Of a stretch of DNA of 64,000 nucleotides, positions 33,685 to 41,474 are shown piece by piece; within the stretch, counting starts at the first letter, position 1, and each line of letters opens with the position of its first letter. The position numbers and the translations under genes are program-made. The DNA is from Chloroherpetonaceae bacterium (GTDB lineage Bacteria; Bacteroidota; Chlorobiia; Chlorobiales; Thermochlorobacteraceae). The DNA is taken from contig JBDNCJ010000006.1 of NCBI GenBank assembly GCA_046719715.1, forward strand, positions 8,492-72,491, in the 5' to 3' direction. The notes below the pieces were generated by a model. The model was not told the DNA's origin. It worked only from the letters and a program-made list of their open reading frames with translations, and ran no database searches.

Positions 33685-35934
33685 TTATGCTTGCAGGGCG
33701 GGCGACTTCGCCTCAACCAGCACGCCAACCGCTCCCGCAATCAGCCCGTTTGAAATCATCGGCGAAAAATGAAAATCGACTTGCGACTCGGCGACGACGA
33801 GCGATGTTGCAACCGATTCCCCCGATAGCACCCGACGGAACGCGCCAAGAAGTTGAGGATACTTGCCGTAGAGTTCATAAATGGATTTCCCTTTTGCAAG
33901 CGTTGACGCCGATTGATGTAGGTCGGTGGATTTTCCGAAGATGCCGGTGATGACTCCCGCATCGTCAAAGGTGATGAGGGAAATTGGCGCGGCGTCGAGC
34001 ATCGGCTCAATCTGCTGTTTGAACTCGCGATATTCGCTCTCGATGGTGGCACGCTTGGTAGCGTCAGTGAGCAAGGTGAGCACGCCGAGCGGATTTCCGA
34101 CCTCGTCGTCGAGGCGCGAAATGAACATCTCCGCGATTTTTTGTTCGCCGTCAGGCGTAAGATATTTGATTTTGCCGTCCCACCGTCCGACGCTTTGCAG
34201 CGACTCCATCGCGGCTTTGCGCTCTTTTGAGGAGGCATACTTGTATTTCATAATTTCGTCCGACTTCTTACCCAACGCCTCGCCCACAGACACGCCGTGA
34301 AACATCGCCGCCGCTTCATTCCAATATCGGATTTCACCAGAGACGCTCACCATCACGACGGCAAGATTAAGCGCGTTGAGAATCGCTGATTTTTCCGTCA
34401 GCATCCGCTCTTTTGCTTTTAACTCTTTTTGTGCCTCGTGGAGTTTGGCGGATTTTTCCTGAACACTGCTTTCTAAAATTTTCACGTCGCTTTCAAGACG
34501 CTCGACTTCTCGGTCGGCTTGCTCCCAATCGGCACGCAACTGCGAAATCGTGCTTTGGGCGTCGGCGAGTTCGGCAACGAGTTTTGCAATTTCAGTTTCA
34601 AGTTTTGCTTCTTTTTCGGGATTGCCTTTTGGCTGTGCCGCAAGGGTTTGAATGGTTTGATTTGCCTGTGAAAGTTCTTGTTCGAGCTTTTGTCGTTTGC
34701 TTGTTTCTTCGCCGAGTTTTGCGCGAAGGTCGGCGAGTTCTTTGGTGAAACGTTGAGCGAGCGACTGCGCCGATTCTTGCGCCGCTGTCAATTTTGATTC
34801 AAGGCTTCGCTTTTCTTCTTCGGCGTTTACCAGTTCGGCTTTTGCGGTTTCGATTTGTTCGGAAAATGCGCCGGCGTTGTTTACTTGCTTATTGAGCGCG
34901 GCGTCGTATTGCTTGAACATCGCTTCAAATTGAGCGAGTTGGTTGCCTGCATTCTCGACGGCTTCGCGAAGTTGATTGCCGGTGATGAGCGCGTCTTGAA
35001 GCTCGATGCGCAGTTGCATTTCCGCCTCTTGCGCTTTATCGACCTCGTTCATCAATTCTTTTTCGCGCTCTGCTTTTTCGGAGAGTTCGGCTTTGAGCCG
35101 CGTATTGGCTTGTCGCTCTTCTTCGTAGGCGATTGCCGAAAGCCGCGCTTTTTCTTCCGCTGTTTTCAAGGCATCGGTAAGTTCATTGAGGGTTTGGCGC
35201 GCCGCTTCAAGTTGCGATTCAAGATGTGAATTTATTGATGCGTTGCTTTGAAGCGATTGAAGTTGAGCACGAGACAGGTCGAGGGCGTTTTGGAGTTCGA
35301 AGTTGTTTGCATTCAGCGTGGCAATGGTATCGGTAAGCTCATCGATTTTTTTCTGCATATCGTCTATGACGACGGAGGAAGCGGCGTGGCTCGACACATC
35401 AGGCAAGGCGGGCTTGTGCGGTTCTTTTTCCGTCGTTGGCGCGGGAAGCGGTTCATCTTCAAGAAACGGCGACTGCAATCGCGCTAATTGTGCTCGTACC
35501 GCTTCGAGATTTCTCATGAAGTCTTCCGACGGTTGCGGGATTTGCGTCTGCGGGTTTGAGACGGGCTTCCGACTTAAAATTTCCCGAATTGCCGCCGTTA
35601 AAAATTTCAAATGCGACTTAAACACATAATCCGATGCGCCGCTTTTCAAGACCTCCGCAACGACGGCTTCATCGGTAATTTTTGAGAGCACAATGACGGG
35701 AATATGAATCGATTTTGATTTCAAGTGAGCGATGACGTCGCTCACAGTTTTGCGCTTTTGAAGAGCGTATTCGCAAAGCACCAAGTCAAAGGTTTGCTCT
35801 TCGAGTGCTTCTTCAAATTCTTCAAATGATTCTACATGCTCAATATCGGGGTGGAGTTCATCGCTTTTGAGCGTCAGCCAAGCCACTTGCGCGTCCAAGA
35901 GCGAGGTGTCAAAATGAAGAATGCGAATACTCAT
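33685..35934 (-). CDS. atypical receiver (Asp->Glu) - long coiled-coil - tandem PAS protein
   Basis: 749 aa. The N-terminal CheY-like fold has E where the phospho-acceptor D is expected (FDLVLCEYAL). Conserved S (VIVLSK) and K (DYVFKS) are retained. About 330 aa of heptad-rich sequence follow, then C-terminal PAS-like regions. No recognisable output domain. Confidence 0.7.
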   Translation of the reverse strand: MSIRILHFDTSLLDAQVAWLTLKSDELHPDIEHVESFEEFEEALEEQTFDLVLCEYALQKRKTVSDVIAHLKSKSIHIPVIVLSKITDEAVVAEVLKSGASDYVFKSHLKFLTAAIREILSRKPVSNPQTQIPQPSEDFMRNLEAVRAQLARLQSPFLEDEPLPAPTTEKEPHKPALPDVSSHAASSVVIDDMQKKIDELTDTIATLNANNFELQNALDLSRAQLQSLQSNASINSHLESQLEAARQTLNELTDALKTAEEKARLSAIAYEEERQANTRLKAELSEKAEREKELMNEVDKAQEAEMQLRIELQDALITGNQLREAVENAGNQLAQFEAMFKQYDAALNKQVNNAGAFSEQIETAKAELVNAEEEKRSLESKLTAAQESAQSLAQRFTKELADLRAKLGEETSKRQKLEQELSQANQTIQTLAAQPKGNPEKEAKLETEIAKLVAELADAQSTISQLRADWEQADREVERLESDVKILESSVQEKSAKLHEAQKELKAKERMLTEKSAILNALNLAVVMVSVSGEIRYWNEAAAMFHGVSVGEALGKKSDEIMKYKYASSKERKAAMESLQSVGRWDGKIKYLTPDGEQKIAEMFISRLDDEVGNPLGVLTLLTDATKRATIESEYREFKQQIEPMLDAAPISLITFDDAGVITGIFGKSTDLHQSASTLAKGKSIYELYGKYPQLLGAFRRVLSGESVATSLVVAESQVDFHFSPMISNGLIAGAVGVLVEAKSPALQA

Positions 35935-35955: not shown

Positions 35956-36897
35956 TTATTCAAAAAGTGCTTGAACGAATTTCCGTCGGTCGAAGAGTTG
36001 CAAGTCGTCAATTTTTTCGCCGACGCCGATATACTTGACGGGAATGTTCAGTTCGTTTGAAATGGCAATCACCACGCCGCCTTTGGCTGTGCCGTCGAGC
36101 TTGGTGAGAATCAGCCCTGTTACATCGACGGCTTTGGTAAATTCTTTGGCTTGATTGAGAGCATTTTGCCCTGTTGAGCCATCTAAGACGAGCAAAACTT
36201 CATTTGGCGCGTCGGGCAGTTTCTTTTTCATCACGCGCTTGATTTTGGCGAGTTCTTCCATCAAGTGCGTTTTGTTGTGCAAGCGTCCCGCCGTATCGAC
36301 CAAGACGACGTCGACGTCTTTTGCAATGGCGGAAGAAACAGCGTCAAAAACGACGGCGCTGGGGTCGACGCCCTGACCTTGCGAGACAATCGGCACACCG
36401 GCGCGCTCCGCCCAAATTTCCAACTGCTCTGTGGCGGCGGCGCGAAACGTATCGGCGGCGGCAATCAAGACCTTCTTCCCCGCGCTTTTGTAATTATACG
36501 CCATCTTTCCAATGCTCGTCGTTTTTCCAACACCATTGACGCCGACAATCATAATCACATAGGGCTTCTTGGGCAATGTTGCGTCAAAATCGACCACCGT
36601 TACCTCGCGTGCGTCGCGCATCAATTTTTGAATTTCATCGCGGAGCATCGCGTCTAACTCTTGCTCGCTGGTATAACGCTCTTTTTTAGCGCGCATCGAG
36701 ATGGATTCCACGATTTTAAGCGTCGTTGGCACGCCCACATCTGCCGAAATGAGAATTTGCTCCAACTCCTCCAAAAATTCATCATCTATTTTTGTTTTGC
36801 CCTTTACAAGACGAGAAATTTTTCCGAACAAATTTTCCCTCGTTTTTGCAAGACCTTCTTTCAGTCGCGAAAGTTTGAAGGCGTCAAAAAAGCCCAT
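35956..36897 (-). CDS. ftsY: signal recognition particle receptor FtsY
   Basis: GVNGVGKTTSIGK, DTAGRLHNK and LTKLDGTAKGG are present. Confidence 0.95.
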   Translation of the reverse strand: MGFFDAFKLSRLKEGLAKTRENLFGKISRLVKGKTKIDDEFLEELEQILISADVGVPTTLKIVESISMRAKKERYTSEQELDAMLRDEIQKLMRDAREVTVVDFDATLPKKPYVIMIVGVNGVGKTTSIGKMAYNYKSAGKKVLIAAADTFRAAATEQLEIWAERAGVPIVSQGQGVDPSAVVFDAVSSAIAKDVDVVLVDTAGRLHNKTHLMEELAKIKRVMKKKLPDAPNEVLLVLDGSTGQNALNQAKEFTKAVDVTGLILTKLDGTAKGGVVIAISNELNIPVKYIGVGEKIDDLQLFDRRKFVQALFE

Positions 36898-36908: not shown

Positions 36909-37652
36909 CTATGATTTTAAGGTTATTAAATTTTCGGCGAAGCCGACGGCGCGCGTGGCAAGTTCCAACGCTGTTTTTGCGTCAACTTCAAATTCAACGC
37001 TCTCGTAGCGCATCTCGACGGCAAAGTCGTTGAGTTTTGACGCATCGTTTAACTCTGCTTCAACTTCAATTGCGTTTGCCGCAAGCAATTTCAAAATCTC
37101 TCCCAAATCGTGCGTTCTCGGAAAATGAACGTTCTGATGCGCAAGCACGGCTTTGAGTGCCTTCTCTACCGCTTGTTGCGCATTGAAGCCAATTCCTTCC
37201 ATATCGTTTGGGCTGACTGCAAAGAGCGTTTCGGCTCGCTCTTTATCTTTCTTGGCTTTTTCCAAGAGGGTTTTCGCAATGTCCTGATTGGTTTTCATTT
37301 CCGCTGGGTTGTTCGCCATTCGCTTTGCTGACACATCTTCGTAAAGCACAACGCCTTCGTCTCTGATGTTTCGCCACAGTCCGACCGTTACGCCCTTCAT
37401 CGCCTCGCACTCCGATTGATGCTTGACCAACAGTTGAACCCGTGCGGGCAACTTCCCCACTGCCGATTTCAATTTCATTCGTTCCTGTTTCAAATCCACC
37501 TCGTCCGAAAGCATCACGAGCACATCGTAATCGCTTTCTTCGTCGTAATCGCCTCGCGCCCGCGAGCCAAACAGCACCACCTTCACAGGCGACGACACCC
37601 GACGCACTTCGCCGAGAATTTCTTGCTCAATTTCATCTATGACGGTTTTCAT
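36909..37652 (-). CDS. nucleotidyltransferase-HEPN fusion protein, copy A
   Basis: 247 aa. N-terminal minimal NTase (VVLFGSRARGDYDEESDYDVLVML) and a C-terminal classical HEPN-like four-helix region (..QQAVEKALKAVLAH..FPRTHDLGEILKLL..FAVEMRY). Confidence 0.8.
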   Translation of the reverse strand: MKTVIDEIEQEILGEVRRVSSPVKVVLFGSRARGDYDEESDYDVLVMLSDEVDLKQERMKLKSAVGKLPARVQLLVKHQSECEAMKGVTVGLWRNIRDEGVVLYEDVSAKRMANNPAEMKTNQDIAKTLLEKAKKDKERAETLFAVSPNDMEGIGFNAQQAVEKALKAVLAHQNVHFPRTHDLGEILKLLAANAIEVEAELNDASKLNDFAVEMRYESVEFEVDAKTALELATRAVGFAENLITLKS

Positions 37653-38357
37653 GGATTCACAGTCCTTTTGTTAGCAATGCTTCAGCGAAGGCGACGGCGC
37701 GTGTGGCAAGTTCCAACGCTGTTTTTGCGTCAACTTCAAATTCAACGCTCTCGTAGCGCATCTCGACGGCAAAGTCGTTGAGTTTTGACACATCGTTTAA
37801 CTCTGCTTCAACTTCAATTCCGTTTGCCGCAAGCAATTTCAAAATCTCTCCCAAATCGTGCGTTCTCGGAAAATGAACGTCGTGATGCGCAAGCACGGCT
37901 TTGAGTGCCTTCTCTACCGCTTGCTGGCAGTGAAATCCGATTGCTTCCATTTCATTCAAGTGCTCGTTCAGCACCAATGCCGATTTCAAATCTACTTTCG
38001 CTTTTTCCAAGAGGGTTCTCGCGACGTCTTGATTGGTTTTCATTTCCGCTGGGTTATTCGCCATTCGCTTTGCTGACACATCTTCGTAAAGCACAACGCC
38101 TTCGTCTCTGATGTTTCGCCACAGTCCGACCGTTACGCCCTTCATCGCCTCGCACTCCGATTGATGCTTGACCAACAGTTGAACCCGCGCGGGCAACTTC
38201 CCCACTGCCGATTTCAATTTCATTCGTTCTTGTTTCAAATCCACCTCGTCCGAAAGCACCACGAGCACATCGTAATCGCTTTCTTCGTCGTAATCGCCTC
38301 GCGCCCGTGAGCCAAACAGCACCACCTTCACAGGCGACGACACCCGACGCACTTCGC
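36944..38357. repeat. tandem direct duplication (~670 bp x2, period 748/745 bp)
   Basis: 36944-37612 and 37692-38357 are nearly identical nucleotide for nucleotide, with scattered single differences. The exception is one divergent patch, 37176-37254 versus 37924-37999. Confidence 0.9.
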
Positions 38358-38439
38358 GAAGTATTTCCACTTCAAATCCATCAAGCGCGATTTTGTGCTC
38401 AACTTGACTATCTTCAATTCCTTTGAAAGCCAAAGCCAT
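37657..38439 (-). CDS. nucleotidyltransferase-HEPN fusion protein, copy B
   Basis: Near-identical paralogue of copy A. The ORF runs to 38487, but that ATG overlaps the thiL ATG head-to-head, so the internal ATG at 38439 (MALAFKG..) is more plausible. Confidence 0.78.
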   Translation of the reverse strand: MALAFKGIEDSQVEHKIALDGFEVEILREVRRVSSPVKVVLFGSRARGDYDEESDYDVLVVLSDEVDLKQERMKLKSAVGKLPARVQLLVKHQSECEAMKGVTVGLWRNIRDEGVVLYEDVSAKRMANNPAEMKTNQDVARTLLEKAKVDLKSALVLNEHLNEMEAIGFHCQQAVEKALKAVLAHHDVHFPRTHDLGEILKLLAANGIEVEAELNDVSKLNDFAVEMRYESVEFEVDAKTALELATRAVAFAEALLTKGL

Positions 38440-38480
38440 CTTTTTCGTTATTTTGTCTGAATATAAAACTTCCTTGTTCA

Positions 38481-39686
38481 ATGTCATTTACACGCATCTC
38501 TGAAATCGGGGAATTTGCTTTGATTGACCGACTTGCAACCCTCATTCAACCAACCGAATCTCAACTTTCCACGCTCAAAAAAGGTATCGGCGACGACTGC
38601 GCCGTCATTGAACTTCCAAACGGCAAATTGCAAGTCATTTCCACCGATTTGCTCATTGAACAGATTCATTTTGATTTACTCACCACGCCGCTCGAGCACT
38701 TGGGCGCGAAAGCCATCAGCGTGAATGTTTCTGACATTTGCGCCATGAACGCCAAGCCGCTTTATGCGACGATGAGCATTGGACTTTCCAACAATGTTTC
38801 CGTCGAGATGATTGAGCAGATTTACGAAGGCGCGACGCGCGTTGCCAAGCAATACGGCATTGCGATTGTCGGCGGCGACACGTCGGCGAGCATCACGGGA
38901 TTGGTGATTTCGGTTACGATTGTCGGCGAAGTTGATGCCGATAAAATCACCTATCGAAGCGGCGCAAAGTCAGGCGACTTCATCTGCATTACGGGCGATG
39001 TCGGACGGTCGTTTGCGGGCTTGAAAGTGCTTATGCGCGAGCGTCAAACGATGCTTGATACCTTCGCGGAAAATCCCGATATGGATAAATCCACTTACAA
39101 AGCCGATTTGTCGGAATATCAAAAAGCGATTGAAAAACACCTGCTTCCCAAAGCGCGCATTGATGCGGTCAAGTTTTTTCATGAGGCGGGAATTGTTCCA
39201 ACCTCAATGATTGATGTTTCAGATGGCGTTGCGTCTGAACTCAAACACCTCTGCCGAAATTCACAAACGGGCGCGTTGATTGAAGAATCCAAGATCCCGA
39301 TTCTTTCCGAGACGCGCGAAGTTTCGGACGAATTCGAAGATGATGGCACCACCTACGCGCTTTTCGGTGGCGAAGACTACGAATTGCTTTTTACGATTTC
39401 GCCAAACGATTTAGAAAAACTCTCTGCGTTTAAAGACATTCACATCATCGGCAAAGTGCTCGACGCTTCCCATGGCGTTAAAATGCGCGACCTCTTCGGC
39501 ACCGATATCGACTTGCAAAACACTTCTGGCTTTCAACACTTCGCCGAAGAAGACGAGCACTTTTTTGAAGACGAAGACGAACACACTCACAACGGACACG
39601 ACCACGATGCACACGGTCGTAATGGGCATAATCATAACGGACATGATGACGCGGACGAAGACATTTGGGGCGAGCGCAAAAATTAA
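38481..39686 (+). CDS. thiL: thiamine-monophosphate kinase with His/Asp/Glu-rich C-terminal extension
   Basis: ThiL blocks IGDDCAVIE, DICAMNAKP and VGGDTS are present. About 50 extra C-terminal residues read EEDEHFFEDEDEHTHNGHDHDAHGRNGHNHNGHDDADED. Confidence 0.88.
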   Translation: MSFTRISEIGEFALIDRLATLIQPTESQLSTLKKGIGDDCAVIELPNGKLQVISTDLLIEQIHFDLLTTPLEHLGAKAISVNVSDICAMNAKPLYATMSIGLSNNVSVEMIEQIYEGATRVAKQYGIAIVGGDTSASITGLVISVTIVGEVDADKITYRSGAKSGDFICITGDVGRSFAGLKVLMRERQTMLDTFAENPDMDKSTYKADLSEYQKAIEKHLLPKARIDAVKFFHEAGIVPTSMIDVSDGVASELKHLCRNSQTGALIEESKIPILSETREVSDEFEDDGTTYALFGGEDYELLFTISPNDLEKLSAFKDIHIIGKVLDASHGVKMRDLFGTDIDLQNTSGFQHFAEEDEHFFEDEDEHTHNGHDHDAHGRNGHNHNGHDDADEDIWGERKN

Positions 39687-40295: not shown

Positions 40296-41429
<1,134 letters not shown>

Positions 41430-41474
41430 TTCAACCAACCATTTCACAGTTCTTTACAAAGCCCTCTTTTTATT

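Follow-up and report, generated by a model that had tools for sequence, protein, structure and literature searches.

Two adjacent genes on the minus strand of a Chloroherpetonaceae genome are nearly identical along most of their length, and almost unalignable over 75-78 nucleotides (nt) in the middle. Is this short segment changing unusually fast in an otherwise ordinary pair of recent duplicates, or is it the rest of the two genes that has been kept alike? The window, which is the whole stretch of DNA analysed here, comprises 64,000 nt of contig JBDNCJ010000006.1 (assembly GCA_046719715.1). Both genes code for a two-domain protein with an N-terminal nucleotidyltransferase (NTase), followed by a HEPN domain at the C-terminus. 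According to the list of open reading frames and to Pfam, the downstream gene, copy A (36909..37652, minus strand), is a 247-residue protein with what we name the K-type patch, and the upstream gene, copy B (37657..38439, minus strand), is a 260-residue protein with the V-type patch. Copy A is a 100% match to the NCBI protein P0001 from a Chloroherpetonaceae metagenome-assembled genome (MAG). We find it probable that these are ancient tandem paralogues subject to gene conversion and unequal crossing-over, in which one short segment has been kept in two forms. We have considerably less confidence in any specific functional role of the patch than in this evolutionary mechanism.

The K-type patch occupies 37176..37254 (79 nt), that is, residues 134-159 of copy A plus the last base of codon 133, and reads KKDKERAETLFAVSPNDMEGIGFNAQ. 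The V-type patch of copy B, at 37924..37999 (76 nt), reads KVDLKSALVLNEHLNEMEAIGFHCQ and is one codon shorter. Towards the 5' end of the genes, a homogenised tract covers codons 15-132 of copy A (37257..37610), including the NTase domain, the linker and the start of HEPN helix 1, with its partner in copy B at 38002..38355 (repeat family D1). Towards the 3' end, a second tract covers codons 160-236 of copy A (36945..37175) and thus the rest of the HEPN domain, with its partner at 37693..37923 (repeat family D2). All these features are read on the minus strand. Copies A and B have 96.9% nucleotide identity over 360 nt in the 5' core (11 mismatches), 45.8% over the 72 aligned nt of the patch and 97.8% over 231 nt in the 3' core (5 mismatches). 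A repeat search made independently gives two blocks whose copies start 745 and 748 nt apart. The patch holds 39 of the 55 A-B mismatches where 6 are expected (hypergeometric P = 2.5e-30), and in 2000 shuffles no 72-site window collects more than 20. The initial annotation had argued that uniform drift would not produce such a pattern, and the clustering of mismatches supports it; the coordinates, the peptides and the in-frame length difference of 3 nt that it gave are exact in both the DNA and the codon alignments. It had also described flanks that match base for base. They are near-identical, but they include the 11 and 5 mismatches above, and the left patch edge is slightly ragged, with A-B differences at A codons 123, 125, 127, 133 and 134. 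Nor is the patch the single divergent segment it was taken for: the first 14 codons of A diverge (against 44 in the 276-codon numbering of the open frame of B, or 28 from its Met-17), and so do the last ~11 codons of the two genes. These N- and C-terminal stretches are the edges of the repeat unit. In the junction between the tandem repeats (37611..37692, minus strand), the divergent C-terminus of B is followed by a spacer of 4 nt and then by the 14 divergent N-terminal codons of A.

Synonymous sites separate the two parts of the genes by age. The proportion of synonymous differences (pS, by the Nei-Gojobori method) between A and B is about 1.0 in the patch and 0.02-0.10 in the flanks (0.095 in the 5' core and 0.019 in the 3' core). 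Even the residues common to both patches (A133, K134, A140, L143, N149, I154, G155, F156 and Q159) are written with codons that almost all differ. Since the synonymous sites of the patch are saturated, the patch forms are old and the flanks young. A recent duplicate with positive selection on the patch does not fit, because in that case only non-synonymous change would rise.

The relatives of the two genes carry the same two forms. A protein search finds about 30 close homologues with 55-87% identity, all of them in MAGs or metagenomes of Chloroherpetonaceae, Thermochlorobacteriaceae or Chlorobiales. For a codon alignment we used DNA from 20 loci that carry a close homologue; the majority of these loci are syntenic and complete. 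Only two patch forms, K-type and V-type, are present among about 17 syntenic related loci, and likewise among about 50 homologues. The K-type has 26 residues, KKDKERAETLFAVSPNDMEGIGFNAQ and close variants, and the V-type has 25 residues, KVDLKSALVLNEHLNEMEAIGFHCQ and variants. Alignment columns in which K and V differ with a consistency of 80% or more are confined to residues 135-158, and the type-diagnostic residues (K versus V) are K135/V, F144/L, S147/H, N157/H and A158/C, together with a one-residue indel at the turn. The mosaic is present in every tandem pair that combines a K and a V copy. It recurs in five tandem pairs besides the one in the window, and the patch edges coincide in all six. 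As an example, in the L001 pair the 5' core is 100% identical over 354 nt and the patch 45.8% identical.

Cores and patches have different genealogies. In neighbour-joining trees of the cores, the two copies of each genome group together; in trees of the patch, there is a deep split into a K and a V clade, each of which mirrors the order of the lineages. Core identity averages 0.93 within a genome (up to 0.99) versus 0.80-0.81 between genomes. In the patch, nucleotide identity is 0.80 for the same type across genomes, next to 0.81 for the core, and 0.47 between types, where pS reaches 0.985, that is, synonymous saturation. Within a type, the ratio of non-synonymous to synonymous divergence (dN/dS) of the patch is 0.056 for K and 0.16 for V, and that of the cores is 0.17-0.22. 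Each patch form is under purifying selection.

Three observations on individual homologues belong here. In the JGI metagenome loci (P0014-P0027, L023-L027) we see at least three haplotype blocks (for example AELKIEREKLESAVAKLPASVQLL, AKLKMEREKLKSAMMKLPVRVQVL and AELKAEQAKLKAAMMKLPARVQVL) at protein residues ~50-75 and ~105-118, which assort independently of patch type and gene position; this assortment suggests that in these populations copies and strains recombine frequently. A Chlorobiales MAG has a homologue without the N-terminal part (L003, 1132-1794) in which otherwise invariant NTase residues are substituted (KVVRFGLRARGD and further on DYNVLGVL), and which may be a decaying copy. An 804-nt low-coverage contig labelled Gloeomargarita sp. 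(L004), and so binned to a cyanobacterium, carries a V-type homologue with 51-55% identity; either the contig was binned wrongly and comes from a Chlorobi relative in the same sample, or the gene was transferred horizontally.

The site at which the genes lie, between a thiL-like gene and ftsY, occurs in five arrangements. In L001, L023, L024, L025, L027, L078, L082 and L084 the K copy is upstream and the V copy downstream. The window has the opposite order, V upstream and K downstream. Both copies are K in L080 (2213-2986 and 3001-3756). A single K copy is found in L022 and L002, and a single V copy in L077, L081 and L083. The two L080 copies are identical from the NTase domain through the patch, an apparent conversion tract across the patch that erased the V form. 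All the single copies (L081, L077, L022, L002 and L083) have the upstream-type N-terminus and directly adjoin ftsY, a structure consistent with the product of unequal crossing-over between the two repeats; the tandem L078, for example, has a close relative in L081, which combines an upstream N-terminus with a V patch beside ftsY. The junction in the window aligns with those of distant K-V tandems, with which it shares CCGTCATAG, ATAACA(C/A)AAGGA and AA(A/T)CC(G/A)TGA. Given this homology, there was probably a single and old duplication, and the patches would have exchanged positions in the lineage of the window.

A second assembly, GCA_046719425.1, contains the same locus from a sister strain. 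Its contig with the B orthologue runs 147 nt past the stop codon into the start of A, with 147/147 positions identical to the window, and A and ftsY begin another contig; the repeat breaks contigs. Since the order of V followed by A is reproduced in this second assembly, it is not an accident of assembly. The sister strain has 4 differences from the window in 4930 nt, and three of them are in copy B. At the adjacent positions 37881-37882, within the 3' homogenised tract of B, the His-Asp codons of B become the Gln-Asn codons of A, which by its sequence is a fresh, short A-to-B conversion. We also note that nt 1-65 of L079, from this assembly, are unmatched in the window, with 100% identity from position 66 on; this is probably a contig-end mis-join at the repeat.

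As for the origin of the two forms, distant relatives are V-like, with the pattern DL..A..L...GFHxQQAVEKALKA, and a HMMER search with the HEPN half, exhaustive over 1.84 billion representatives, in which the whole clade is collapsed to the one K-like variant P0023 and of which the best distant hits were inspected, finds no K-like hairpin outside the clade. From these two results, the V-type is the probable ancestral form, and the K-type would be derived, having arisen inside the clade. We considered a foreign donor for the K patch and found none; the G+C content of the two patches (0.47 and 0.43, with 0.49 for the genes) is not anomalous. The K patch includes a perfect inverted repeat of 8 bp around a loop of 8 nt (AAAGAGCG...CGCTCTTT, 37221-37244 in plus-strand coordinates), kept in the nearest K-type genes L022, L078 and L084 and degenerate or shifted in others. 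We rejected it as a functional RNA or DNA element, being conserved only partly among K-type genes, and it is probably a by-product of Lys-Glu (KE) ... Leu-Phe (LF) codons.

The mechanism that we propose, and hold to be probable, is concerted evolution. The ancient tandem paralogues of the NTase-HEPN protein would sit at a fixed thiL-ftsY site in Chloroherpetonaceae, where RecA-type recombination between the direct repeats repeatedly transfers sequence between the two genes (interlocus gene conversion), and from time to time unequal or double crossing-over removes copies or reshuffles them. Of the ~740 bp, about 590 would then evolve in concert and look recently duplicated, with the segment of 75-78 nt staying in two old forms. 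The sharp patch edges would be conversion tracts stopping at the 46%-identity block, and both forms would be kept in nearly all tandem loci, each by purifying selection. The V-K order of the window could have arisen by an intramolecular double crossover, one in each homogenised tract, with neither form lost, or by the equivalent excision through one tract and re-integration through the other.

The explanation closest to this one needs no selection for two forms. A block of ~75 nt with 46% identity would by itself stop heteroduplex extension, and the two forms, functionally equivalent, would be a neutral residue of the recombination process. The identical patch edges in all six tandem pairs are what such a process would leave, and the single-K, single-V and K-K genomes indicate that no lineage strictly needs both forms. 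However, the forms stay strongly conserved in lineages whose cores are only ~75% identical, as the within-type dN/dS values tell, and the differences between them are radical and fixed (S/H, N/H, A/C, K/V and the one-residue indel). Moreover, conversion does cross the patch in L080, and under neutrality K-K and V-V pairs should build up, yet about nine in ten tandem loci are mixed. Neutrality also leaves the origin of the block divergence, inside a converting pair, unaccounted for. We favour selection over heterology alone because conversion can cross the patch and most tandems nevertheless keep both forms, each conserved; the neutral account seems to us rather unlikely. It is still less likely, and we would call it improbable, that a single-copy gene was duplicated recently and the other patch form imported from a related strain. 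It is true that the closest relatives are single-copy, with the K patch of L022 97% identical to that of A and the V patch of L077 96% identical to that of B, and that the V-K order of the window is unusual. Such an import does not agree with the homology of the window junction to distant K-V tandem junctions, which argues for one old duplication, or with the same mosaic in lineages with ~75% core identity, and the single copies are more simply seen as deletions by unequal crossover, as in L081 versus the tandem L078.

The initial annotation had called the patch hypervariable and proposed cassette exchange or recombination, or strong diversifying selection. The very sharp contrast between patch and flanks and the in-frame indel do suggest ongoing diversification or a programmed source of variation, such as a diversity-generating retroelement or silent cassettes. 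The relatives argue otherwise: only two forms occur, the synonymous sites are saturated between forms, and the dN/dS within each form is well below 1. Between genomes, a patch of given type has diverged as fast as the remainder of the gene (0.80 versus 0.81 identity), the very outcome that the annotation had named as refuting its reading. We searched the 64-kb window with both patches by blastn-short and tblastn and found no copy beyond the two known, hence no third copy, template repeat or silent cassette there; the patches are unalignable and their differences are not limited to adenine positions. We give this possibility next to no weight. What stands of the annotation's proposal is recombination, which acts chiefly by homogenising the flanks and not by hypervariable cassette exchange at the patch. 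We give just as little credence to an assembly artefact, a chimeric join in the MAG of K and V strain alleles of a single-copy gene, even though single-copy K and V alleles exist in related populations and the repeat breaks contigs in the second assembly. The junction that leads from B into the A-specific start is identical at 147/147 nt in that independent assembly; the copies have position-specific N- and C-termini that a join of alleles is not expected to produce; and tandem pairs are found in at least nine other samples, on contigs of up to 232 kb.

We now turn to the proteins. The C-terminal halves match Pfam HEPN PF05168 with 75.6 and 77.1 bits (cut-off 22) and the N-terminal halves match NTP_transf_2 with 45.2 and 47.6 bits (cut-off 21). 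The NTase motif GSx10DxD, tested with the pattern G[SG]-x9-13-D-x-[DE], is intact as GSRARGDYDEESDYD in both copies and does not vary among 31 homologues. An Rx4-6H RNase motif is absent from the HEPN half, the sole match (RVQLLVKH) being in the NTase half. The NCBIfam models for MntA (NF047752: 39.2 and 37.9 bits, cut-off 60) and HalB (NF051895: 22.9 and 25.2 bits, cut-off 190) are both below their cut-offs, the neighbours are thiL and ftsY with no HalA, and the Pfam and NCBIfam scans of the two proteins report no aminoglycoside nucleotidyltransferase (ANT) family. Membership in a defence or toxin-antitoxin system was considered and rejected: PADLOC gives only candidate PDC-S09 models over the NTase domain, next to the sub-threshold MntA and HalB scores. 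A sequence search of the PDB matches only relatives of the NTase domain. Foldseek returns ANT-type structures (4ebj, 7uy4, 6xz0, 6un8, 1kny and 5g4a; E 4e-5 to 4e-4, TM 0.38-0.53), with ANT(4')-IIb, ANT(3'')(9)/AadA, AAD(9), KNTase, LinB and the Hailong protein HalB matching at TM 0.35-0.53, and, for the C-terminal half, the archaeal HEPN protein ST0689.

An AlphaFold model from a 31-sequence alignment (mean pLDDT 86, pTM 0.78) places the patch within this architecture. HEPN helix 1 is predicted at residues 122-146, a turn at 147-150 and helix 2 at 151-172, so that the patch (135-159) would be the distal half of the HEPN alpha1-turn-alpha2 hairpin, modelled with pLDDT > 90. The initial annotation had assigned it to the linker plus the first HEPN helix; the linker (~106-121, of low confidence in the model) is identical in A and B, and the patch takes in the second half of helix 1, the turn after it and the first part of helix 2. 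On the helical wheel of helix 1, D136, A140 and L143, which both forms share, lie within a single 60-degree arc, and the remainder is taken up by type-specific residues; this fits a conserved packing face with a changed exposed surface. The patch is the only consistent difference between the two protein classes and lies on an exposed face of the predicted fold, for which reason it is a likely determinant of what the helical domain binds, whether an acceptor substrate or a protein partner; by analogy with the ANT enzymes, it is plausible as a specificity surface. One further reading, which we regard as a long shot, has the K and V proteins form a heterodimer that acts as an asymmetric recognition pair, as in the head-to-tail dimers of KNTase. 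The hairpin of one subunit would meet the NTase site or partner surface of the other, so that one paralogue modifies or regulates its neighbour; conversion would keep the dimer scaffold matched and selection would keep the hairpins different. If true, the pair would be a fused, chromosomally domesticated relative of the MNT/HEPN toxin-antitoxin pairs (MNT, minimal nucleotidyltransferase), with its specificity in 25 residues. In such a pair, the His, His and Cys residues peculiar to the V form might serve as a metal site, a redox site or an acceptor.

Several points weigh against concerted evolution with selection for two specificities. The within-type dS of the patch is 1.1-1.5 versus 0.7-0.8 in the cores, a difference that involves only ~14 synonymous sites. 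The counts of locus arrangements are non-independent, many loci coming from related metagenome populations, and the junction homology behind the proposed swap in the window is a short alignment. Having both forms is not obligatory, with five or six lineages that have a single copy of either form and the K-K pair of L080, from which it follows that any selection to keep the pair can only be lineage-dependent. Heterology may by itself hinder conversion across the patch, with no selection involved. On the functional side, the role of the patch rests on the predicted topology and on analogy, and the Foldseek matches to ANT enzymes (E ~4e-5 to 1e-3) have TM-scores of only 0.4-0.5 at 10-17% identity.

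The surroundings of the pair are conserved. The ftsY gene (SRP54-type; 35956..36897, minus strand) begins 11 nt downstream of copy A and forms a conserved right border, with the same synteny in L078, L079 and L080-L084. Divergent from copy B, a thiL-like gene of the AIR synthase family (38481..39686, plus strand) forms a conserved left border; this PF00586 neighbour is present in all related loci. After ftsY we observe a gene for a 749-residue response-regulator protein with a long coiled coil and PAS domains (33685-35934, minus strand). It is syntenic in all related loci, which makes the block thiL / NTase-HEPN / ftsY / response regulator with PAS a family-wide conserved one. We found neither promoter-like nor terminator-like sites in the intervals between B, A and ftsY, all on the same strand; co-transcription of the three genes is therefore plausible, as far as consensus matches can tell. 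The frame of copy B is open up to 38487 (276 codons), and Met-17 is at 38439. From the sequence, the start is most likely Met-17 and not 38487, because the NCBI orthologue P0003 begins MALAFKG there, because the upstream Met codon is Arg in four related loci, and because a promoter-like site overlies 38487-38460. This site, upstream of copy B (38460..38487, minus strand), is a consensus match to a sigma-70-like promoter, of a kind that shuffled sequence contains at least as often. From the start of thiL to Met-17, 48 nt (38440-38487) translate, here and in 12 related loci, to a conserved peptide-like string, TL[HN]KEVLYS.KIT.K, which is kept even where its first codon is a non-start. Rather than coding sequence, these 48 nt are more probably a divergent promoter or a 5' leader that has been conserved. 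Farther away, a 34-nt direct repeat (74% identity) lies near both ends of the gap (GAPDH) gene, at 40519-40552 and 41398-41431; short and with two copies only, it is probably due to chance. An Rfam scan of the window reports one tRNA only, far from the locus.

The pair amounts to a natural chimera, two proteins of one genome that differ essentially in a 25-residue hairpin of the HEPN domain, exposed according to the model. That two hairpin forms are kept family-wide points to the likeliest substrate- or partner-deciding part of an uncharacterised NTase-HEPN family, and the question of specificity is cheap to address by exchanging K and V patches. The locus is also a compact bacterial case of concerted evolution, where flank homogenisation, an escaped block, conversion across that block, deletion to a single copy and a positional swap are all seen at one site. 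For annotation and dating it carries a caution: without relatives, such a pair mimics a recent duplicate with a hypervariable spot, the opposite of the truth.

The proteins closest in kind are the NTase proteins with PF05168 in the HEPN survey (PMC3710099), which have the same Pfam architecture, an intact NTase motif and a HEPN half without Rx4-6H. HEPN domains fused to MNT typically lack catalytic residues and have a substrate-binding or regulatory role (PMC3710099). The two-form hairpin of this clade is a feature undescribed for the survey proteins. ANT(3'')(9)/AadA, ANT(4')/KNTase and LinB likewise have an NTase domain at the N-terminus and a helical, HEPN-like domain at the C-terminus. The substrate range of AadA is set by Trp-173, an insertion of two residues at 177-178, Asp-182 and His-185, which sit where the first helix of the helical domain ends, in the loop after it and in the next helix (PMC6065190). 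This is the same topological place as the patch, loop indel included, an analogy for which we do not claim equivalence. Identity with those enzymes is only 10-17%, their drug-binding residues could not be aligned, and the chromosomal site by ftsY gives no hint of resistance; we do not count the pair among them. The MNT/HEPN toxin systems likewise join an MNT-type NTase to a HEPN domain, and there the NTase AMPylates the HEPN domain; by analogy, an intramolecular or intersubunit modification is conceivable as the mode of action here. Those systems have a HepT/DUF86-type HEPN with an Rx4H RNase site and an acceptor Tyr, whereas the HEPN domain here is of the PF05168 type without Rx4-6H. The fused MNT-HEPN toxins also have a HepT-type HEPN with Rx4H and are a different family (PMC13000451). 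The locus here is a conserved chromosomal site and not a mobile element.

For the evolutionary process, a literature search on HEPN and gene conversion returned no relevant paper, and we found none that describes such a process for NTase-HEPN genes. The process itself is well known. Long-lived mammalian gene pairs (PMC2720389) and HMA4 of Arabidopsis halleri (bioRxiv 10.1101/2025.10.29.685298) have the same type of mosaic divergence. There as here, the converted tracts are more alike between paralogues of one genome than between orthologues, trees of the unconverted segment group by paralogue type, synonymous divergence is sharply discordant, and copies are lost or reshuffled by unequal crossing-over. 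In comparison with those examples, ours is a pair on a bacterial chromosome whose escaped block is very short, 25-26 codons in mid-gene, and for which both orders, the K-K pair and the single-copy derivatives are all seen at one site. It is a new case of a known process, in a known but uncharacterised protein architecture.

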